From a virus, in IMG/VR virus record IMGVR_UViG_3300037200_000067, positions 1 through 64,000 of that record: a DNA stretch of 64,000 nucleotides, one strand, 5' to 3'. This document shows positions 411 through 50,555 of this stretch, one piece after another. The position numbers and the translations under genes were made by a program. Positions within the stretch are counted from its first letter, which is position 1; each line of letters begins with the position of its first letter. Under the pieces are notes generated by a model that searched no databases, was not told the DNA's origin, and saw nothing but the letters and a program-made list of their open reading frames with translations.

Positions 411-3400
411 GTGAGCAACATCTATCGCCTTAACGACAGCGGCGAACCGGGCGGACTCCGTGCCCGCGTAAAAATGGTCACGGACAACCTGATCAATTTC
501 ATCAGCGGCCTCGGCACCGGCAAAGACCCAACGACAGCGTCCCGCTTTCATTTCCACGAAATCAACCGCAACGCCCTCGAAGCCGCCTATCGGTCAGACT
601 GGATAGCACGCAGGATCATCGACGCTCCCGCCGAAGATCAGACCCGCGAATGGCGCTCGTGGCAGGCGACAAACCCCCAGATCGAGGCCATCGAAGACCT
701 CGAAAAGCATCTCGATATCCAGCAGAAAACCAAGCTGGCGATCATCCGCGCGCGTCTGTATGGCGGCGCGGCGCTGGTGCTCGGCGTCGATCAAGGCGAA
801 ACGTGGGAGCCGATCGACTATGACAAGGTCGGCAAGGGCGACCTGAAATTCGTGGTGGTGATGAACCGCTACGAACTTGCTGCGGGGCCGCGCATCTATA
901 ACGTGATGAGTCCCTGGTACACGCGTCCGGAATTCTACACGGTCCAGACCCCGCTTTTTGGATTCGGCGGCGAGAACGGCACGCAATATCCCGGCATCAA
1001 CCGAACAGCTGAGGCGTTGATCGTCCCGCCTCGCGTGCAGGGCCAAGCGCCCTATCCGAGCGACAAATTCTTTCAGGTCAGCCCAAACCAGGGAATGGTG
1101 CTGATCCATCCGTCGCGGGTGATCGAACTGGCGGGAAACGAATTGCCCGACTGGCGCCTAGCGCCGATGGGCGGCGGCTGGGGCGATTCGGTCCTCCAGA
1201 CCGTTGACGAGGTGCTGAAAGACTTCGGCCTCACGGTCGGCGGCATCGCCAACATGATCAACGACGCCAAGATGGACGTCGTGAAGGTGCCGGACTTCTC
1301 AAAAAATATATCGACACAGGAATACGCGACGAAACTCGCGACCCGGTTTCAGACCGCGAACCTCCAGAAATCGGTGCTGAACGCCCTCGTTCTCGACAAG
1401 GAGGAAGAGTGGTCGCGCATCCAGACGTCGTTTGCGGCGCTGCCCGATATCATGCGGGAATACATGACGCTCGCGGCGGGCGCCGGCGGGATTCCCGTAA
1501 GCCGGCTGATGGGCCAAAGCCCCGGCCGTGGACTGAATACGACCTCTGGCGGCGACACGGATATCAAGAATTACTACGACTCGATGGCCTCGGCTCAGAA
1601 AACCACGCTCACGCCAGCGATGGAGCCGCTCGACCAGTGCCTGATCCGATCGGCAACCGGGAAATACGATAAAAATATCTGGTACGAATGGAATCCGCTT
1701 TACACGCAAGACCCGAAAGACGTGGCGGCGATCCAACTGACGAAAGCCCAAACCACCTCGCAATACGTCACGATGGGCCTGATCAACGAGGACGCGCTGC
1801 GGCAGGGCGTCGTCAATCAGTTGCTTGAGGATGGCCCTTACGCCGGTCTTGAGGACGCGATCGAGGAATATGGCTCCAAGCCCGACGTCCCCGAGTCGCG
1901 CGTCTGGTCGCCCGGCTATGATCCTGTCACCGGCAAGCCATTGCAGGGCGGCGCGGGCGGCGGCGGTGGGCCGGGCGAGCCAGGATCGCCAGCGGGCGGC
2001 TCTGGCGGCGGTGGAGGATCGAAGGGCGGCGGTGGCGCGGGAGGGCCGACGACGGCCACAGCGCCGGGCGGCAATCGCGGCGCGGGGGGAACGGGCGGCG
2101 AGACGTCGCAGGGAAACCAGGGCGGCAACGTCTTTCACATTCACCTCGCCGGCAAAGACGCGGCTGACTTTGTGCGCGACTTTGATCCAGACCAGCCGCG
2201 TGATCCTGCCGGCAAGTGGACGAGTGGCGGCGGCGCATCTGGGCTCCAGACCAAGAGCGCTAAAAGCGCAGCCTTCTTCGCCGCACTCGAGGAAAAATTC
2301 CGGGCCAGTGCGCAGGCGCGCCTTAACCCGCAGCCGCAGCGCGTCTCGACGTCGCAGGGTGAGGGCGCGCTGGCGATGTTTCACGGGACCGTCGATCAGG
2401 TCCGCGACAAAATTCTGAAGGAGGGTCTCATTCCGCATGCGAGCGGGGGCGGGGACGCTTACGCTGCAAAGCACGGAATGGGCGTCGCGAAGCATGCATT
2501 CGAGGGTGATCGGGCGAATTCCGTCTATATGTCGCCAGACCCCGATTACGCGCGTTCATTCGCGCAGATTGTCGCCAAGGATCATCCGGGCGCCAAGCCG
2601 ATTTTGTTCGAGGCTGACATTCCCGACAGCGCGACCAAAAATCTGAAACGCGACGAGCATGCGGACGGTGCGCCAGCCTATCGTTACATCGGCAAAATAC
2701 CCCCTGCGTGGCTGAAGGTGGTCCCGCTTGACACGCCAGGCTTCGGCAACATCACGACAGACGAGGATAGCGGCGTGAAGCTCTATATCCTCGTGTTCGC
2801 TGACGGGACGACGAGCGCGCTCGACTTCAACCCCAACCACGATCCGAAGACCGGGCAGTTCACGAGCGGTCAGACGGGCGCGGGCGGCGGGCAGAAATCG
2901 GCCAGAACGGCCCGATCTGGTGGCAAGACTTCCCGGAAATCCGGCGCAAAGTCGGCGGGCGCGGGCGCGGCGACAGAGGCCGCGCCAGAACCGACCGAAG
3001 GCGAGGAAGATTTCAATCGCCTGAAGGGCCATCTTCTCGCCGCAGCCGGCGCGATCAAAGACCCGGCCTCGACGATCAAAAACGCCGCGAACTGGACATC
3101 ATGGCATCAGCGCGCTGGATCACAGGCGGCATGGACGCGATCGGGGCTTAAAGCCGCTGCGGCGAGTGGCGCGAAAACGGTCGCCGGCGGCATCCACCAG
3201 GCCGCTGCCGACAAGCTATCCGACACGCTAAAGGGTCTCTTCGACACAATTTGCGAAGGCGTTGGCGGCATCGTCGGAACTGAGGTCGGCGGCATAACGG
3301 GCGGCATTGTCGGCGCGGTCTTCGGCGGAATCATCGGCTATGGCGTCGACAAGCTGATGGACCACCTTGGCGTCACGCCGGAAATGGGCGCGCACGTCCT

Positions 3401-3656
3401 GTCGGTCGCCGGCCACTCGGCGATCGCGTATGCGCACCTTCACGCGCCAAAGATCGCGCAGCGCCTCGCTACGAGCGCGCCAGAGGGCAATTGGAGCGCG
3501 GTGATGCATCCGGGCGCCTATGGCGACGCGGGCGACGGTGGCGACTTCCTCGCGCGCCTTGAGGCGTTCGTCCGCGAACTTGATGCAATGACGCCAGAGC
3601 AGATCACAGAAGCCGCCGCGCAGGCGCGGCAGGCACGCATGGGAGCGCAGATATGA
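411..3656 (+). CDS. Portal protein (DUF1073/HI1409-type) with a long C-terminal extension carrying an ART/Tpt1-like domain and a glycine zipper
   Basis: The N-terminal ~500 aa has DUF1073-type motifs (AYRSDWIARRIIDAPAEDQTREW, ARLYGGAA, GIPVSRLMGQSP.GLN, D..NYYD, WNPL). First gene of the head block. Confidence 0.9.
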   Translation: MSNIYRLNDSGEPGGLRARVKMVTDNLINFISGLGTGKDPTTASRFHFHEINRNALEAAYRSDWIARRIIDAPAEDQTREWRSWQATNPQIEAIEDLEKHLDIQQKTKLAIIRARLYGGAALVLGVDQGETWEPIDYDKVGKGDLKFVVVMNRYELAAGPRIYNVMSPWYTRPEFYTVQTPLFGFGGENGTQYPGINRTAEALIVPPRVQGQAPYPSDKFFQVSPNQGMVLIHPSRVIELAGNELPDWRLAPMGGGWGDSVLQTVDEVLKDFGLTVGGIANMINDAKMDVVKVPDFSKNISTQEYATKLATRFQTANLQKSVLNALVLDKEEEWSRIQTSFAALPDIMREYMTLAAGAGGIPVSRLMGQSPGRGLNTTSGGDTDIKNYYDSMASAQKTTLTPAMEPLDQCLIRSATGKYDKNIWYEWNPLYTQDPKDVAAIQLTKAQTTSQYVTMGLINEDALRQGVVNQLLEDGPYAGLEDAIEEYGSKPDVPESRVWSPGYDPVTGKPLQGGAGGGGGPGEPGSPAGGSGGGGGSKGGGGAGGPTTATAPGGNRGAGGTGGETSQGNQGGNVFHIHLAGKDAADFVRDFDPDQPRDPAGKWTSGGGASGLQTKSAKSAAFFAALEEKFRASAQARLNPQPQRVSTSQGEGALAMFHGTVDQVRDKILKEGLIPHASGGGDAYAAKHGMGVAKHAFEGDRANSVYMSPDPDYARSFAQIVAKDHPGAKPILFEADIPDSATKNLKRDEHADGAPAYRYIGKIPPAWLKVVPLDTPGFGNITTDEDSGVKLYILVFADGTTSALDFNPNHDPKTGQFTSGQTGAGGGQKSARTARSGGKTSRKSGAKSAGAGAATEAAPEPTEGEEDFNRLKGHLLAAAGAIKDPASTIKNAANWTSWHQRAGSQAAWTRSGLKAAAASGAKTVAGGIHQAAADKLSDTLKGLFDTICEGVGGIVGTEVGGITGGIVGAVFGGIIGYGVDKLMDHLGVTPEMGAHVLSVAGHSAIAYAHLHAPKIAQRLATSAPEGNWSAVMHPGAYGDAGDGGDFLARLEAFVRELDAMTPEQITEAAAQARQARMGAQI

Positions 3657-4298: not shown

Positions 4299-4552
4299 CC
4301 GAGGACGGAAGCATGAGAAATTACTTCAAGCCAAGCGCCGTCCTGGCGGTCAAGGTTGAGGCCACGCCTTTAGCAGGCGGCGCGACGATGACAAAGGAAC
4401 GCCCGCAAATGCTCTTGTCCGTCTCAATCGGCGACGTCCTACGCAGACTGGCGGATGACGTCGATAGCCGCGCCAACTGTTCGGTGCGTTGGAATACAGA
4501 CCCCGATGACGGCACGATCACGATGATGGTGGACTTCAAACCGTGGGTCTGA
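4295..4552 (+). CDS. Small hypothetical protein
   Basis: ATGA overlap upstream; TGATG overlap with the MuF start. Confidence 0.55.
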   Translation: MTEDGSMRNYFKPSAVLAVKVEATPLAGGATMTKERPQMLLSVSIGDVLRRLADDVDSRANCSVRWNTDPDDGTITMMVDFKPWV

Positions 4553-6141
4553 TGCTCGACCGCGCGCAAGGAGATCGCCGCAGGCGCATGTTGCGCGACG
4601 CGGCGAAGGGGGAAGGCCGTAGCGGGTTAGCGATAGGTCACGGCCACCTGCATGTCGCTGATCAAACGCCGGGGCGTGGAGGCAACGGGGCCTGCCTCCA
4701 CGACTCTGCCCCGGCCGCGAATGATCCAACAGGCACGACGCCGCTCCGACGGGCATTCCTGGAGGAAGCCCGTAAGCGATGGGCGGCGCTCGATGCGCTC
4801 ACAACTGACGCGATCATCAAGCACAACATGCTCGGAACCGTGAGTGTCGCCAGCATCGGGCAGGCGGCGGCGAGCGCGGTCGGCGGAAACCAGATCGACA
4901 ATTTCGCGCTCTGGTTTGGCGAGGCGGTGCGCCAGGTCGTCATGAACGGCGATGGGCAATGGGTTGCGCCATATATCCGGCAGGCCGCTGGCATGGCCGA
5001 GGAGCGCGCGCGCGGGCTGCTGAGGCTGGACGAAAACGTCGTCGAAGGCATGCCGACGCCTGACGGAAAACCATCCTCGCTCTACATCAGCCGTCCCGTC
5101 GTCAACGCCGCCGATATTGTCGCGTGGGCGAAAGACGCCGGCTTTCCGACCACGCTGCCCGCTGACGATATGCACGTCACGGTCGTCTTCTCGCGCGCGC
5201 AGGTCGATTGGGCGAATGTGCCAGATCACGGCTCTGACCATGTTACGATCGAAGGGTCTGTTGGTCGGTCCCTTGATCAGTTCGGCGACGCCGTCGTCCT
5301 TCGCTTCCCGTGCGAATATCTCGCGCGCCGCCACCATGAAATATCCGCCCTTGGCGCATCATGGGACCATCCGCAATACCAGCCGCACGTCACGATCACG
5401 TGGAACGTCGGCGACTTCGACTGGCGCAACGTGCCCCCATATGCCGGCCCGATTGTGCTCGGCCCGGAAATCTTCAAGCCAGTCAAGGAAGACTGGAAGG
5501 CGTCGATCGTCGAGGACTCCTCGCCCGCGATCAACACTCTGATCGCCGTCACGATCGCCGAACTGCGCGGGATATGCGACGCGACCATCCAGCAGGTGAC
5601 GCGCGCGATCGGCAACGCCGTCCTGGCGCATCAGCGCGCGCCGCAACTCGCCACGGCAGCGGCTGGCGTCATGCGCACAGTCGGTCTCGCCCGCACCAAC
5701 GCCATGATCAATTACATGGTCGTCAAAGCGTTCGCCGTGATCACGCTGGAGGTTTTCCGAACTGGCGGCGTCGAGCAAGTCGGAACGGTCGCCGAAAGCA
5801 TCCCGGCACCGCGCGCGCTCGACGCGCTGTTCGACGCCGCGCGCGTCACGCCGCAGGTGCGCCACGCGCGCACGGGCCAGTTCGTCAAGTTCAAAAAGCC
5901 GCCGTCGCGCAAGAGGCGCGCGGAGATTGAGAAGATCGAGGCTGGGCTCGCGGGGCTTGGCGAGGTCGACGTCGTTACGGCGGACGACGACCTGGTTTGT
6001 CAGCGCTGCCAGGACATCAGCGACAACGGGCCATACGATATAAATGAGGCGCTAGGACTTGTGCCCGTCCATATTTCCTGCCGATGCGTATTTTCACCGA
6101 CTCGCGATGAAGGAGGGCGATTTACCAAAAGGATAAAATGA
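4552..6141 (+). CDS. MuF / SPP1 gp7-family minor head protein with an inserted Acb1-like 2H phosphoesterase domain
   Basis: N-terminal DPTGTTPLRRAF and C-terminal MuF Cys/His motif (TADDDLVCQRC...PVHISCRC). The central domain has two HVT (HxT) motifs at 5173 and 5386. Confidence 0.85.
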   Translation: MLDRAQGDRRRRMLRDAAKGEGRSGLAIGHGHLHVADQTPGRGGNGACLHDSAPAANDPTGTTPLRRAFLEEARKRWAALDALTTDAIIKHNMLGTVSVASIGQAAASAVGGNQIDNFALWFGEAVRQVVMNGDGQWVAPYIRQAAGMAEERARGLLRLDENVVEGMPTPDGKPSSLYISRPVVNAADIVAWAKDAGFPTTLPADDMHVTVVFSRAQVDWANVPDHGSDHVTIEGSVGRSLDQFGDAVVLRFPCEYLARRHHEISALGASWDHPQYQPHVTITWNVGDFDWRNVPPYAGPIVLGPEIFKPVKEDWKASIVEDSSPAINTLIAVTIAELRGICDATIQQVTRAIGNAVLAHQRAPQLATAAAGVMRTVGLARTNAMINYMVVKAFAVITLEVFRTGGVEQVGTVAESIPAPRALDALFDAARVTPQVRHARTGQFVKFKKPPSRKRRAEIEKIEAGLAGLGEVDVVTADDDLVCQRCQDISDNGPYDINEALGLVPVHISCRCVFSPTRDEGGRFTKRIK

Positions 6142-6142
6142 G

Positions 6143-6577
6143 TTGGGGCTGGTGGCAACCGAATATACACGAAACGTTAATCAGTCGTCCCTATCGCTCG
6201 AAGCAAGGCTCCGGGCTGAGAACGCATCTTTGCGCGATCAGCTTGAGGAGTTGAGAGAGCGGTTTGAGATTTATAAACGGGAAACGCTGACCTCGTCATG
6301 GTCGCCCCCGATCGCATTAAGGCTTAGCAAAAGCGAGCGCGTCGTGCTCGAAGCCTTATATCGGCGGGATTTCGTGGCGAAAGAAGCAATGGTGATGGTG
6401 CTTTACGACGATAAAATAGACGACTCGCCCTACTCAAATACAGTGGCCGCGTTCGTCTCCAAAATTCGTCGTAAACTGAGGCCGTACCAAATCCCAATCC
6501 TGAACCGCTGGGGCGTCGGATATTTCATCACCAGCGCTGACAAGCGCCGCCTCGATGAGATCGCCGAATCCCTCTGA
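6143..6577 (+). CDS. Winged-helix transcription factor (OmpR/PhoB-type DNA-binding domain, CtrA-like) with an N-terminal coiled coil and no receiver domain
   Basis: LSKSERVVLEAL...KEAMVMVLY...NTVAAFVSKIRRKL...ILNRWGVGY matches the Trans_reg_C pattern. Confidence 0.75.
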   Translation: MGLVATEYTRNVNQSSLSLEARLRAENASLRDQLEELRERFEIYKRETLTSSWSPPIALRLSKSERVVLEALYRRDFVAKEAMVMVLYDDKIDDSPYSNTVAAFVSKIRRKLRPYQIPILNRWGVGYFITSADKRRLDEIAESL

Positions 6578-6592
6578 GGCGGCGGGGACAGG

Positions 6593-8413
6593 ATGGGATT
6601 GCGATACCCGAAAGCGCCCCGCCAGATTGCGGACGGGATCACCCGCGTCAACCTCCTTGATCCCTTCATACTCGACGGCCTCGTTAAGACCAGCGACGGC
6701 ACAATGCGCCGCACGGCGGACGGCTATCTCACCGCCTTCGCCAATGTCGCGCGAACGGGCATCCAGCAGTACAAGGGCAAAGAGCTTGGCCGGCCCGATC
6801 TGGACGTCGTGAACGTCTATCGGCCCGCTGACGAGGTATTCTCGCGCGACGCCATGCATTCGATGGCGCACAAGCCCGTCACGCTCTACCACCCGACCGA
6901 AGCCGTCACCTCGAAGAACTGGAAAGACCACGCGGGCGGATCGACCGGCGATGAGGTTGTCCGCGACGGCGATCATGTCCGCGTCCCGCTGGTCATGATG
7001 GACCAAGGCCTGATCGACGCCGTCGAAAAGGGCGGCATCAAAGAACTGTCGATGGGCTACTCGACGGACCTGAAATGGGGCCGTGGGACGACGCCAGAGG
7101 GCCTGTCCTACGACGCCACGCAGACCAATATCCGCGCCAATCACCTGGCGGTGGTGCCCGTCGCGCGCGGCGGCAACACGCTGCGGCTGGACGCGACGAT
7201 GGCCCAGCCGAATGTCTGCCCGAACTGCGGCGCGGACATTCCGCCGAACGCAGACGAATGCCCGGCCTGCGAATTCGATCTCACCAACGACATGGCGCTT
7301 GACCGCGTGCCCATGAAATATTGCACCGACTGCGGCACGTCGATGATGGCCGATGCAAAGTTCTGTCCCGGCTGCTCGAAGGCGACCAAAGACGGCATGC
7401 CGCCCAAGACCTGCGCTCAATGTGGAGCACAGATGAAATTCTATGCGCTGGCGTGCCCGGTCTGCCAGACGCCCGCGCCGATGCGCGACGCAGCGAACCT
7501 GACCGCGCGCATGGTCGACGCGAATTTTTACTGGATCGTCGACAAGGTGTTCACCGAACAGAAGCGCGCGCAGATGGCGAAGTCCGGCGCCGCGATGCCC
7601 GGAGGGCGCTATCCGATCGCGACCGCTGCGGACGTCGAGAATGCGGTCAGAGACTACAACCGCACCGGCCAGCCGGCCGACGTCAAAGCCCACATCATCG
7701 CCCGCGCGAAAGCGATCGGGGCCACCAGTTCGCTGCCCGATGGATGGGCGTCGAAAACCAACGACAGCAAAGGAAATCCCATGAGCGCGACCATCACGAT
7801 TGACGGCGCCACGATCGCGGTGGCCGACGAACTCTCCGCTGCGGTCATCACCAAGAAGGTGACCGATCTCTCGCGCCAGCTTCGCGACGCCGAGAAGACG
7901 GCAGCCTCGGCCAAGGCCGACAAGGAAGAGGCCGAGGAAGAGAAGATGAAGCAGGAAGACGGCTTCAAGAAGCAGATCGCGGCCAAGGACGGCGAAATCG
8001 TCGCGCTGAAGTCGCAGTTGAAAGACGCCGTGATGAGCCCCGAGAAGCTCGACGCGCTGGTCAAGGACCGCGCCGAGGTTGTCGGCAAGTCCAAGTCGTT
8101 CCTCGGCGACGGCTTCACCTTCGACGGCAAGACTCTCGACGACATCAAGCGCGCGGTGGTCGCCAGCAAGATCGGCGATGCGGAAGCGAAGACGATGGAC
8201 GCTATTGGCGTCGCTGCGGCGTTCAAGGTGCTGACGGCCGGCACGGACACCCGCGACGGCTTTGGCCGCAGCGGCGGCGCCCGCGATATTGGCTTTGCGC
8301 TGCATCACCAGCAGTCGAACGGCCAGCGTCCCGGCGTCCGCGTTCAGGACGCTGCGCTCAGCGATTACGAAAAGAACCTCAACTCGGCATGGCAGACGAA
8401 GCGCGCCTCGTAA
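6593..8413 (+). CDS. Prohead protease/scaffold (DUF2213-type) with inserted zinc ribbons
   Basis: RTADGYL...ARTGIQQY, VYRPADEVF, PVTLYHP, ELSMGYS and NHLAVVPVARGG motifs. C-terminal coiled-coil scaffold region. Confidence 0.88.
   Translation: MGLRYPKAPRQIADGITRVNLLDPFILDGLVKTSDGTMRRTADGYLTAFANVARTGIQQYKGKELGRPDLDVVNVYRPADEVFSRDAMHSMAHKPVTLYHPTEAVTSKNWKDHAGGSTGDEVVRDGDHVRVPLVMMDQGLIDAVEKGGIKELSMGYSTDLKWGRGTTPEGLSYDATQTNIRANHLAVVPVARGGNTLRLDATMAQPNVCPNCGADIPPNADECPACEFDLTNDMALDRVPMKYCTDCGTSMMADAKFCPGCSKATKDGMPPKTCAQCGAQMKFYALACPVCQTPAPMRDAANLTARMVDANFYWIVDKVFTEQKRAQMAKSGAAMPGGRYPIATAADVENAVRDYNRTGQPADVKAHIIARAKAIGATSSLPDGWASKTNDSKGNPMSATITIDGATIAVADELSAAVITKKVTDLSRQLRDAEKTAASAKADKEEAEEEKMKQEDGFKKQIAAKDGEIVALKSQLKDAVMSPEKLDALVKDRAEVVGKSKSFLGDGFTFDGKTLDDIKRAVVASKIGDAEAKTMDAIGVAAAFKVLTAGTDTRDGFGRSGGARDIGFALHHQQSNGQRPGVRVQDAALSDYEKNLNSAWQTKRAS
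7781..8413 (+). CDS. Probable nested scaffolding protein translated from an internal start
   Basis: In-frame ATG at 7781 preceded by AAAGGAAATCCC (strong RBS). Product MSATITIDG... is a charged coiled coil. Confidence 0.6.
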   Translation: MSATITIDGATIAVADELSAAVITKKVTDLSRQLRDAEKTAASAKADKEEAEEEKMKQEDGFKKQIAAKDGEIVALKSQLKDAVMSPEKLDALVKDRAEVVGKSKSFLGDGFTFDGKTLDDIKRAVVASKIGDAEAKTMDAIGVAAAFKVLTAGTDTRDGFGRSGGARDIGFALHHQQSNGQRPGVRVQDAALSDYEKNLNSAWQTKRAS

Positions 8414-9036: not shown

Positions 9037-9981
9037 ATGCGTCACTTCATGTTGGACTCGCAGCAGGCCCTGGGCTTTCTGATCGAGCAGACGACTTCGA
9101 TCGAAAGCGAAGTCTATCGCATCCAGTACCCGGATATCCTCTACCCGCAGCTTGTGCCGGTCGATACGAGCGCATCGGAGTGGGCGAAGTCAGTCACGTA
9201 CTTCTCGCTCGATAAGGTTGGCGAGGCGCAGTGGTTCGACGGCATGGCGACCAACATGCCGCTAGCCGACATCAACCGCGCCAAGTACGAGCAGGGCATC
9301 GAAATGGCCGGCATCGGCTATCGCTACACGCTCGAGGAACTCGGGCAGGCGATGATGATCCCCGGCCTGAACCTGTCGAGCGAAAGGGCGGAAGCCGCGC
9401 GTCGGTCCTACGAGGAATTCATGGACCGGCTGGCGCGTATCGGCGATGCGCGCAAGCAGGTGACGGGCCTGCTCAACAACGCGACGGTCACGCAGGTCGA
9501 TGCGATTGCGGACGGCACCGGCTCCAGTGCGTTGTGGTCGAATAAAACTGCGGATCAGATGATCCGCGACGTCCAGAACGCTCTCACGGCGGTTTACGAG
9601 GGTTCAAACACGGTCGAAATGGCCGACACGGTTCTGCTGCCGATCAGCAATATGGAACTGCTCGCCAACACCCGCGTCCCGAACACCTTCGGCAACGCGC
9701 TCGACTATCTGATGAAGTACAACCTGTATACGCATACGACCGGCGCGCCGCTGACGATTCGCGGCATTCTGAACCTGAACAATCTTGGCGTGGGCGGAAC
9801 GGGTCGCATGGTCGCCTATCGCCGCGACCCGCGTGTCGTGAAGCTGCATGTCCCGATGGTCCACCGCTTCCTGCCCGTCTGGCAGACCGGCCCGATCACC
9901 TATGACATTCCCGGAATTTTCCGCGTCGGTTCGGTCGAAATCCGGCGCCCCGGCGCATTCACTTACGTAGATGGGATTTGA
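9037..9981 (+). CDS. Major capsid protein (DUF2184 / encapsulin-like HK97 fold)
   Basis: 314 aa, strong RBS (AAAAGGAC). Motifs IGYRYTLEEL, GLLNN, GRMVAY and GSVEIRRPGAFTYVDGI. Confidence 0.92.
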   Translation: MRHFMLDSQQALGFLIEQTTSIESEVYRIQYPDILYPQLVPVDTSASEWAKSVTYFSLDKVGEAQWFDGMATNMPLADINRAKYEQGIEMAGIGYRYTLEELGQAMMIPGLNLSSERAEAARRSYEEFMDRLARIGDARKQVTGLLNNATVTQVDAIADGTGSSALWSNKTADQMIRDVQNALTAVYEGSNTVEMADTVLLPISNMELLANTRVPNTFGNALDYLMKYNLYTHTTGAPLTIRGILNLNNLGVGGTGRMVAYRRDPRVVKLHVPMVHRFLPVWQTGPITYDIPGIFRVGSVEIRRPGAFTYVDGI

Positions 9982-32430: not shown

Positions 32431-33408
32431 TCAAGTCCTAAAAACCTCGCGCCGGTGGCAGCGCGTTACAAAGTCGTCGATCCAGTCATAATCCGGCTCG
32501 GCTTGAAGTGTGGAGACGGCAGACGCGGCTTCGACGTCGGCGAGCCCTTGCTCAATCTCGGCGGCGACATCCTGATAGGCGCACCGCCCGAGTTTGATCG
32601 CGAGGATGTGCGCGGCGTCAGGAATTGGAAAAGTCACGCGCCCCGTCGTCAGCATTTCGATCGCTTGCCGCGCCACGCGAACAGCATGGGATAGCGCCTT
32701 CCAGTCAACGCCGTTCTGACTTTCCGCCTGAAGCGCGCGGGCGCCGTAGTCTTTGACGAGGGCGTGCATTATATCGCGCGCGTTTTTGATTGATGCAGAG
32801 TAGGACAACTTTCGCCCGCAGACTTCCCAGTGGTCCATCATCACGCCAGATGCGTGCTCAATCGGCACGATGGCCATATGTTCGTCGCTGGCGACGGCAT
32901 GATCAATGAAAGGCGCGATCTCTCGCAACTTCGCGGTCGTTCCAAGCCCCTCTACGGCGTCGTCGAGAATCGCTAGCGCCTTGCGCGCTGCGGCGACGCG
33001 CGAACCCTTGATGCCATACTTGTTGGCCTGCTGACGGCAATAACCGACGAAGGCGGCGGACTTGCTTGTGATCAGGCGATGGCGATTGGCGACCACCTCG
33101 CGCCACTCTGGCGACGGCGGTTCGGTCATACTCCATTCGGGTGCGAACAGCACGTCGGTGGCGACTGTCTGCCCCTCAGACATCAGGGACAGATAGCGTT
33201 GCAGGCTGAAGGACTCCTCATCGACTTCTCCAGCGAAGTTCTTTTCGCCTTCGCTCTTTGCGCGCTTAGTCGAGATTGATCCGCGAACGCGCTGCAACAG
33301 GATTGAGCGCGCGTCGGGCATGTAGACGCTTTTGAAATCGAGGTCAGACTGCGGCGTTGATGTCCCGTAAAGGTGCGAACCGAATTTGATGCGGACCAGC
33401 GTTCTCAT
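32431..33408 (-). CDS. Nucleotidyltransferase, Pol-beta superfamily (RlaP/YcgL-like phage family)
   Basis: FGSHLYGT..P.SD.D motif, GYC..QA.KY and DWKALSHAVR. Confidence 0.82.
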   Translation of the reverse strand: MRTLVRIKFGSHLYGTSTPQSDLDFKSVYMPDARSILLQRVRGSISTKRAKSEGEKNFAGEVDEESFSLQRYLSLMSEGQTVATDVLFAPEWSMTEPPSPEWREVVANRHRLITSKSAAFVGYCRQQANKYGIKGSRVAAARKALAILDDAVEGLGTTAKLREIAPFIDHAVASDEHMAIVPIEHASGVMMDHWEVCGRKLSYSASIKNARDIMHALVKDYGARALQAESQNGVDWKALSHAVRVARQAIEMLTTGRVTFPIPDAAHILAIKLGRCAYQDVAAEIEQGLADVEAASAVSTLQAEPDYDWIDDFVTRCHRREVFRT

Positions 33409-49306: not shown

Positions 49307-49680
49307 GCTTGCATCCCTCCGCTCTGCGCGCGCCTAAGCGCCGCATCGCCAGCTTCCGTGATGACATACACCGTAAAGCCATCGCCGACTGCCGCGCGCA
49401 CGAGGCCGCGCTTGGCAAGCCACGCCAGTTGCGACGGCGCGCGCTCTTTGTCGACGCCTTCCGGCGAAGCAGATGCAGCAAGCCATCGCATCGCGCGGAC
49501 CATCTTCGGCGGTCGGACGCGGCGCTCGGGAACGTGGAATGACGTCATGTCAGCGCCACGATCCTTGGCGCACTGCGGCGAGCAGTAGCGCGGGATTCCG
49601 CCGCCCTCGTCATCAATGTACGTTCCGCAGCACTCGCAAAGCGTGCCGTCGAGAAGCATGTCAGCCACGTCGCCCATCAC
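49303..49680 (-). CDS. Zn-finger / winged-helix hypothetical protein
   Basis: MGDVADM.LDG.LCECCG...G.PRYC..C; C-terminal LAKRGLV...ITEAG. Confidence 0.55.
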   Translation of the reverse strand: MMGDVADMLLDGTLCECCGTYIDDEGGGIPRYCSPQCAKDRGADMTSFHVPERRVRPPKMVRAMRWLAASASPEGVDKERAPSQLAWLAKRGLVRAAVGDGFTVYVITEAGDAALRRAQSGGMQA

Positions 49681-50555
49681 TTGCCTCCTTGCGCGCGCTT
49701 CATCTTCTGATTGAGAAGCGCAATCGCCCGATCGTACGACTCCTTCGGGAGCGCGGAAATCTGCGGGATTTCAAACGCCGCACAGAACGCCGCGCGATCG
49801 GATTTGGTCGCTTCCAGAAGATCGGCAAGCGTCTGCAACTGAGCCGCATCAATGAGATATTCCTCGATTGAGCCAGCCTCCGATCCAGCCGCCCTTCCGT
49901 CATCGTCGCCATCGGTCGGCGCGCGCGACGTAATGTTCAGCAAGAGCGACGCGGTGTACCGTTTGCCATAAGTGATCGACGAGCCCATGGCTTGGACCGG
50001 GTTCTTTGAGCCTGTACTATCGTGCATCAGAACCATTGTCGTCTGTTCCTCGTGGCCTTCACGATGCCCAAGGATGCCCGTGACGGTGATCCGGCCATCG
50101 GGCGCAATGCCAGTCTTGAACGACAGCGCGAACCCGAATTTGGCGAGCGGCCCTTTGATGGCCTCGTTGATATCGGCCAACGACGAATAGGGCGTCTCTT
50201 GAATCGGTTTGGCGTTCGGATTCGGCGGCTGCCTCTCCCGATCGGCCTTGGAATAGACGATAATCCTGCCCGTCTGCGCGACGCCCGGAAGCTCGGGCTG
50301 CATAGCGCTGAAATCAGCGAAGAACGCGGCCTTGGCGCGCCTGGCTTGAACCCTGTCGTGCAGGTCCATCAGCTTTTCGAGCCGCGCGAGATCAACGCTC
50401 GGATCGACTAGCACGCGCTCGATCATCGCGGTGAAGTGGTCCTGCGCGACGGGCGCGGCATGGCGTCCGTGCTGGGCGTGGACGACGCTTCCGCCGTCGT
50501 GAACGCCTTCGCCGACGACGATCGTCTCGACCGCCGCGTCCGTCGTTTCCGCCAT
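49677..50555 (-). CDS. erf: ERF-family ssDNA annealing protein
   Basis: YSSL.DI...I...L...G.AL.F, L.H..GH.E, QA.GS.ITYG.RY and D.DDDG motifs. Confidence 0.85.
   Translation of the reverse strand: MAETTDAAVETIVVGEGVHDGGSVVHAQHGRHAAPVAQDHFTAMIERVLVDPSVDLARLEKLMDLHDRVQARRAKAAFFADFSAMQPELPGVAQTGRIIVYSKADRERQPPNPNAKPIQETPYSSLADINEAIKGPLAKFGFALSFKTGIAPDGRITVTGILGHREGHEEQTTMVLMHDSTGSKNPVQAMGSSITYGKRYTASLLLNITSRAPTDGDDDGRAAGSEAGSIEEYLIDAAQLQTLADLLEATKSDRAAFCAAFEIPQISALPKESYDRAIALLNQKMKRAQGGK

Follow-up and report, generated by a model that had tools for sequence, protein, structure and literature searches.

The stretch of DNA considered here (the window: 64,000 nt, positions 1 to 64,000 of the IMG/VR virus record IMGVR_UViG_3300037200_000067) comes from an uncultured phage whose record of 74,259 bp has direct terminal repeats and is rated 100% complete, and to which a collection of 50,697 cultured phage records offers no near DNA match. 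Within a cluster of head genes it has a gene whose product appears to be a MuF-like minor head protein with a complete Acb1-family 2H phosphodiesterase inserted mid-chain. The insert occupies positions 5074-5517 (plus strand) and its 148 residues are read in frame inside a single open reading frame (ORF) at 4543-6141, which translates to 532 amino acids from a GTG. Public gene calls for the same ORF begin at ATG 4552 (529 aa) or ATG 4588 (517 aa), and the former, overlapping the upstream stop as TGATG, is the likely start. The full length fusion protein, labelled P0002 in the alignments and trees, is of about 57 kDa, and its first 58 or so residues are of low model confidence and are not conserved. 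The features of the gene are these:

4552..6141, plus strand: MuF-like minor head gene with the Acb1 insert, its frame open from GTG 4543
4717..5034, plus strand: residues ~59-164 of the carrier, its helical N-terminal half (alignments A1 and A3, AlphaFold2 model, VIA matches)
5035..5073, plus strand: N-side linker, residues 165-177, of low model confidence and not conserved in the homologue P0005
5074..5517, plus strand: complete Acb1-family 2H phosphodiesterase domain by its Pfam match (nt 5077-5502), residues 178-325
5173..5181, plus strand: first catalytic HxT, H211-V-T213, by alignment A5 with T4 gene 57B
5386..5394, plus strand: second catalytic HxT, H282-V-T284, by the same alignment
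5476..5517, plus strand: C-terminal lid segment of Acb1, holding K312 and W318, from the T4 alignment and the model
5518..6138, plus strand: C-terminal carrier half, with two long helices ahead of a PF04233 (Phage_Mu_F)-like core, from hhalign and invariant columns
5074..5080 and 5518-5524, plus strand: a 7-nt direct repeat, TCCTCGC (family D4)

An invariant DPTGT motif is encoded in the N-terminal half of the carrier at nt 4723-4737, and the C-terminal half has a CxxC at nt 5998-6009 and an H..CRC that ends at nt 6087. At the borders of the insert LRLDE makes up residues 160-164 and IVEDS residues 322-326.

Judged from sequence and from a structural model, the insert is a whole and apparently active Acb1-family 2H domain with an intact catalytic tetrad. 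The first-pass annotation of the window had proposed an Acb1-like 2H phosphoesterase at 5074-5517, and the 148 residues, the two HxT motifs and the flanking LRLD/E and IVED/S that it quoted are all present as described. Pfam family PF23474 (Acb1) matches residues 179-320 at 144.3 bits (E 2.7e-42; cut-off 27 bits) over profile positions 2-143 of 144, which puts the assignment far beyond chance, and a PF23474 search of the phage's own genome record gives 148 bits. The best relatives of solved structure by sequence are the FBB1 Acb1 (7t26, E 4e-17) and residues 472-618, the C-terminal 150 residues, of the portal chain of cyanophage Pam3 (8hds_A, E 4e-17). An AlphaFold2 model of the fusion protein, built from a 28-sequence alignment, has a pLDDT (predicted local distance difference test) above 90 over residues 178-321, and Foldseek ranks 7t26/7t27 first for it (E 8e-9, target TM-score 0.71). 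The structural comparison with Acb1 that had been proposed as a check came out clearly, a VIA search returning 7t27_A at Z 16.6 with a root-mean-square deviation of 1.8 A over 133 of 140 residues, with the phosphodiesterase of Burkholderia phage BCSR5 next at Z 13.9 and further 2H enzymes at Z 8-10. No Hint or splicing domain and no homing endonuclease was found in the insert by Pfam, and the 2H domain accounts for the whole of it.

A residue map of the active site was drawn by aligning the insert with T4 gene 57B, using the T4 numbering and roles of Hobbs et al. 2022 (PMC9117128). The tetrad is kept, T4 H44 and T46 being H211 and T213 and T4 H113 and T115 being H282 and T284. The equivalents of the base-stacking Y12, W74 and F107 are Y181, F247 and H276 (the last is F or Y in close relatives), and W147, which stacks on a base from within the lid, is W318. 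The insert thus has in common with the Acb1 of T4 (gene 57B) and FBB1 (7T26/7T27) the same Pfam family over its full length, the 2H fold, the HxT/HxT tetrad, an N-terminal Tyr, stacking aromatics and a Trp-bearing lid, at an identity of around 31% to FBB1 (an Erwinia phage) and 27% to T4. In contrast to those enzymes, which are free-standing and of about 150 aa, it sits mid-chain with both of its ends, the lid included, tethered, and the adenine-contacting Glu of T4 is replaced by Lys.

Turning to the protein that carries it, insert-free homologues of 320-360 aa align contiguously across both flanks, the closest (P0004) being 59% identical over the carrier, and they pass directly from the helix ending at about residue 164 to the helix starting at about 328. 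It follows that the Acb1 domain is a true insertion, and the boundaries given for it in the first-pass annotation lie within a few residues of the unit gained or lost in this alignment. The family profile matches 4,964 cluster representatives. By hhalign the family alignment A1 matches P0106 over the whole length with a probability of 99.9% (E 3e-31, 261 columns); P0106 has a bona fide PF04233 at 53.5 bits (residues 201-306), and P0004 scores 19 bits on PF04233, under the cut-off of 29.6. This link places the carrier, as a divergent member, in the MuF/SPP1-gp7 superfamily, an assignment reached by profile-profile comparison only. Its PF04233-like part covers about residues 345-520. The insert, which had been taken to split MuF into two halves, does indeed interrupt a MuF-type protein in a head gene cluster, but it lies upstream of the PF04233-like core and so leaves the Pfam domain itself unsplit. 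The flanking helices (residues 139-164 and 328-361) form one helical bundle in the model, and the helical-bundle matches from VIA run over residues 60-406 while skipping the Acb1 domain, which places the insert at the tip of a helical hairpin.

Among its relatives the Acb1 domain is seldom found in such a place. Around 165 Acb1-bearing homologues were collected, mostly fusions with the remainder stand-alone, and the fusion partners are the C-termini of portals (PF06381, PF04860, PF06074) and the N-termini of prohead proteases (PF09979, PF14550); cultured phages with such fusions include Rhizobium RHEph04/06, Synechococcus phages and Pseudomonas phiPSA1. Only three of these sequences have Acb1 inside a MuF-like protein, namely the one from this phage, P0005 (475 aa) and the fragment P0107. 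IMG/VR gave no match to patterns taken from the fusion protein itself, and patterns from the alignment of the three members returned 73 loci with this Acb1 subclade, none of them MuF-internal; a collection of genomes from 185,579 species gave one portal-Acb1 locus, in Pararhodobacter marinus. As a separate observation, acb1 in T4 (L077, NC_000866, 73591-74410; gene 57B, still annotated 'RNA ligase') directly adjoins ipI, whose product is an internal virion protein injected with the T4 DNA.

The site within the carrier seems by comparison well used. In a census of the 76 top family members aligned to the carrier profile, inserts of 139 to 724 aa are at the exact profile column of the Acb1 insert in 8 of the 76, a second column has inserts in 7, and Hint/intein-type inserts are at a third column, between H-P-N and C-R-C. 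The passengers at the Acb1 column are as follows:

P0223 and P0230: GNAT acetyltransferase
P0190: ART-PolyVal
P0194: DUF7178
P0183 and P0212: a domain without a Pfam match

Beyond the 76, P0279 has a GNAT domain at the Acb1 site in alignment A3, and in the same alignment P0240, P0244, P0278 and P0287 have inserts there with no assigned domain. With GNAT, ART, DUF7178 or other domains at the site of Acb1 in family members, this is a recurrent cargo slot. The view that the internal position is itself notable therefore holds in part, the position being rare for Acb1 but the site a common one for cargo in the MuF-like family. The inserts lacking a Pfam match are of about 140-200 aa (in P0183, 725 aa, P0212, 676 aa, P0240, P0244, P0278 and P0287) and are candidate effector domains.

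Two further observations concern the same family. Insertions of 300-480 aa of the Hint/intein type, with weak Pfam Hint/Intein_splicing matches, lie C-terminally in P0068, P0255, P0230 and L013:6930-9116, and the interval from H-P-N to C-R-C seems to be a place where inteins recur in a phage head protein. A motif of the type H-P-R-x(3)-G-x-F/W-T stands ahead of many of the cargo domains (alignment A3: P0223, P0240, P0244, P0278, P0287, P0212, P0279), and strings that resemble it, R-T-G-Q-F and G-G-R-F-T, are in the C-terminal half of the present carrier at about 5860-5895 and 6100-6135; a packaging tag and a processing site are candidate roles for the motif.

The histories of the cassette and of its carrier do not run together. 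In a tree of 146 Acb1 sequences the domains of P0002 and P0005 are mutual nearest relatives (59% identity; support by the Shimodaira-Hasegawa-like approximate likelihood ratio test, SH-aLRT, 83). In the carrier tree P0002 groups with the insert-free P0004 (support 98), so that the carriers of P0002 and P0005 are not sisters, and P0005 and P0107 group with P0183, which bears a different insert (support 100). A single clade of the three Acb1 carriers was rejected (difference in log likelihood 157; approximately unbiased test, p-AU 6e-7). Either the cassette has moved between divergent MuF genes at the slot, or it is old there and has repeatedly been lost or replaced. Identity between P0002 and P0005 is 59% in the insert against 38% and 41.5% in the carrier halves, and the better conservation of the insert argues for purifying selection on the enzyme. 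An 'LY' after the linker of P0004 was considered as a scar of an Acb1 deletion and rejected; the linker there has the same length as the P0002 flanks without their insert, which makes P0004 the empty-site form. The two copies of TCCTCGC flank exactly the 444-nt Acb1 unit and may be recombination microhomology, but the pair is within chance, and since about 20 such 7-nt repeat pairs are expected in 800 nt it is not relied on here.

The surrounding head genes add a second kind of movement. In order along the plus strand are the portal gene, four small ORFs, the fusion gene, a winged-helix protein, the protease, a cement protein and the major capsid protein, for which the principal coordinates are:

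411..3656, plus strand: portal gene, 1081 aa, with Phage_portal_3 at residues 56-449 (Pfam)
6593..8413, plus strand: prohead protease of the DUF2213 type, 606 aa (Pfam)
9037..9981, plus strand: major capsid protein (PF09950), sharing 74% identity with its counterpart on contig L013

True relatives of this phage among the 73 loci are L013 (a 74.6-kb contig) and L054 (a 71.7-kb contig). Both are 55-59% identical to it over the N-terminal region of the portal and 61-64% over the protease, and both have the same order of head genes; the stretch of L054 examined gave no match to the major capsid protein. Each has Acb1 at the C-terminus of its portal (PF06381 with PF23474 at residues 546-693 in L013), and the MuF-like gene of each is insert-free at the Acb1 site. 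The portal of the present phage has at exactly the position where theirs have Acb1 a C-terminal extension of about 580 aa (residues ~500-1081) with no Pfam or PHROG match. The Acb1 cassette seems to move between head proteins by recombination. A broader proposal, about as likely as not, is that the slot, a helical hairpin some 130 residues from the start of the conserved core, is one where unrelated effectors are swapped by recombination independently of the carrier phylogeny, with Acb1 shuttling among the portal C-terminus, the protease N-terminus and the MuF loop.

Features of the neighbourhood that stand apart from these questions may be recorded here. The ORF between the MuF-like gene and the protease (6143-6577, plus strand) encodes a 144-aa protein with an OmpR-type winged helix (Trans_reg_C, 28 bits), and a DNA-binding regulator is oddly placed amid head genes. 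In the prohead protease (6593-8413) double zinc-ribbon domains (about residues 209-294) separate the protease domain from the C-terminal part. Further away an RlaP-family gene (32431-33408, minus strand) adjoins a GH108 endolysin, and a lone predicted tRNA-Gly(TCC) at 50454-50541 (plus strand) overlaps the end of a minus-strand ORF (49677-50555).

As to function, the reading that we find moderately probable is that a MuF/gp7-like minor head protein carries Acb1 as cargo in a hairpin loop, is packaged and is ejected with the DNA, so that the enzyme degrades the signals of CBASS, an antiphage defence in which signalling is based on cyclic oligonucleotides. The fusion protein would be built into the procapsid via the portal in few copies, much as SPP1 gp7, a portal-binding protein of which each capsid has 1-2 copies (PMC5576092), and would leave the capsid along with the DNA. 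That would supply the infected cell with a metal-independent enzyme, ready-made and able to linearise 3'3'-cGAMP, cAAA and similar molecules before effectors are activated, and late synthesis of the head proteins would add more of the fusion. At the low copy number of MuF an enzyme would be useful where a stoichiometric sponge would not. We infer packaging and ejection from the gp7 precedent, from Acb1 biochemistry and from the way Acb1 is consistently found on capsid-interior anchors, and a capsid-carried anti-CBASS role is the best inference. Iyer et al. 2017 (PMC5512222) predicted that fusions of 2H domains to MuF and portal proteins degrade the nucleotides of nucleotide-activated defence. 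Virion-delivered action against CBASS also has a precedent, in a protein reported to be ejected and to inhibit CBASS through a different mechanism (preprint 10.1101/2025.07.23.666291). The suggestion that the enzyme might alternatively counter type III CRISPR signalling has limited scope, because Acb1 is a metal-independent enzyme that linearises the cyclic di- and trinucleotide signals of CBASS and not cA4 (Hobbs et al. 2022, PMC9117128).

Several points weigh against delivery of an anti-CBASS enzyme in this manner. T4 E141, which contacts adenine N6, is not kept and is K312 here, so the base preference may differ from that of T4 Acb1, the residue being one of specificity and not of catalysis; a Glu at this position is kept in P0005, P0107 and several stand-alone relatives. 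Viral 2H enzymes that share an active site may differ widely in substrate range (Doherty et al. 2025 preprint). The Acb1 lid, free in the crystallised enzyme, is here about 9 residues from the next carrier helix. As for the carrier, PF04233 matches neither the whole protein nor either flank, the flanks are without any Pfam match even at E up to 10, and Mu gp30, with a single sequence as template, does not match the family profile. Passage through the tail channel would require a folded 16-kDa domain in mid-chain to unfold, and for this uncultured phage packaging, ejection and substrate are alike presumed.

The best placed of the alternatives, although an unlikely one, is that Acb1 acts only in the producing cell, late and within the unassembled fusion, such that joining it to a head gene provides late-operon timing and dosage and not delivery. 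The fusion gene is in a late head operon, the partners of Acb1 are all late structural genes, and late action would coincide with the triggering of CBASS by structural proteins; mutations in virion assembly proteins that are reported, in a preprint abstract, to evade type I CBASS fit such late triggering (10.1101/2023.05.21.541620). Yet the partners are specifically capsid-interior (the inner end of the portal, the prohead protease and MuF) and not late genes in general, with no tail or lysis fusions among the Acb1 homologues examined, and the ART and GNAT domains of the same slot belong to known classes of injected effector (PMC5512222). Late action and delivery by the virion are in any case not mutually exclusive.

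It seems improbable, somewhat more so than late action, that the prohead protease cuts Acb1 out at both linkers to yield a free soluble protein inside the capsid, although the first-pass annotation had called the position excisable. Low model confidence at both linkers (165-177 and the block 321-330), (L/I)-x-E and x-x-D motifs at both borders, a DUF2213-type protease encoded two genes downstream, and the P1 Dar proteins as processed head-internal cargo (PMC5512222) would fit with excision. But conservation of the N-side border does not extend to the other two MuF-inserted members, P0005 for example, and the I/L-x-E-D tail of the C-side also ends stand-alone Acb1 proteins, so that the acidic IVED is native to the C-terminus of the domain; cutting at both sites would leave the MuF bundle in two pieces. 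The insert has no Hint domain, and proteolytic excisability is not supported. The major capsid protein offers no guide motif for the protease, its N-terminus being conserved throughout with no propeptide junction, and the E217 paper gives no cleavage specificity.

The most doubtful of the alternatives is that the 2H domain is not anti-CBASS but instead serves RNA-end healing, or acts against RNA-targeting defences as a Usb1-like RNase, a 2',3'-cyclic phosphodiesterase or a degrader of 2'-5' oligoadenylate. In its favour, the 2H superfamily spans all such reactions (PMC5512222), the insert has a weak LigT_PEase match (23 bits) besides its K312 and the variable substrate range of viral 2H enzymes, and the RlaP gene, of an 'RNA repair pathway' polymerase-beta-type nucleotidyltransferase family (49 bits), is in the genome. 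Against it, Acb1 is clearly the nearest in sequence as well as in fold, and 3'3'-cGAMP and cAAA were cleaved by all nine of the further Acb1 homologues that Hobbs et al. assayed (PMC9117128). No RtcB or DRB0094-type RNA ligase was found in the complete genome (a T4 Rnl1 model matched none of the control genomes), and Iyer et al. found no link between these phage 2H versions and RNA ligases (PMC5512222).

Overall, and returning to Acb1 as packaged cargo, the class of fusion is not new, since 2H-MuF and 2H-portal proteins were described in 2017. The expectation that such fusions might already be annotated was correct, UniRef labelling portal fusions 'Anti-CBASS protein Acb1' and Iyer, Burroughs, Anand, de Souza and Aravind (2017, PMC5512222) having described the same joining of 2H, in a late operon, to a head protein of the MuF type, with injection and signal degradation predicted; the text read describes fusions and has no loop insertion or recurrent slot. 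Fusions of Acb1 to structural proteins are unmentioned in the main text of Hobbs 2022, in Doherty 2025 and in the Pam3 structure paper, and the literature searched yielded no experimental test of fusions between 2H/Acb1 and head proteins. The finding is therefore a well-supported and unusually placed example of a described class, recognised automatically by Pfam, and it adds the placement inside the chain, the pattern of a cargo slot and the relocation from portal to MuF among close relatives.

Two known systems frame these additions. Phages with Acb1 on the portal (Pam3 gp3, PDB 8HDS; RHEph04/06; phiPSA1; L013; L054) have a domain of the same Acb1 subclade at 45-55% identity, and share with this phage the type of head module and the presumed location in the capsid interior; there the enzyme is at the portal C-terminus and so at 12 copies per virion unless processed, whereas here it is in a low-copy MuF-like protein. 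The MuF toxins and SPP1 gp7 (Jamet et al. 2017, PMC5576092; PF04233) have in common with it a MuF-type head carrier and a variable enzymatic passenger, and for gp7 there is experimental precedent of residence in the capsid at low copy, bound to the portal (PMC5576092). In the MuF toxins the variable domain is C-terminal and they are described from temperate phages, in contrast to the internal counter-defence enzyme predicted here on a carrier below the Pfam threshold.

That an enzyme which degrades signals is delivered ready-made together with phage DNA has been a prediction since 2017, and these phages offer a natural comparison of the same enzyme on a 12-copy portal anchor and on a low-copy MuF anchor. 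The passengers of the slot that have no assigned function are candidates for new counter-defence functions, and if the exchange of effectors at this site is as proposed, the slot would be a searchable place for new counter-defence enzymes injected by phages.

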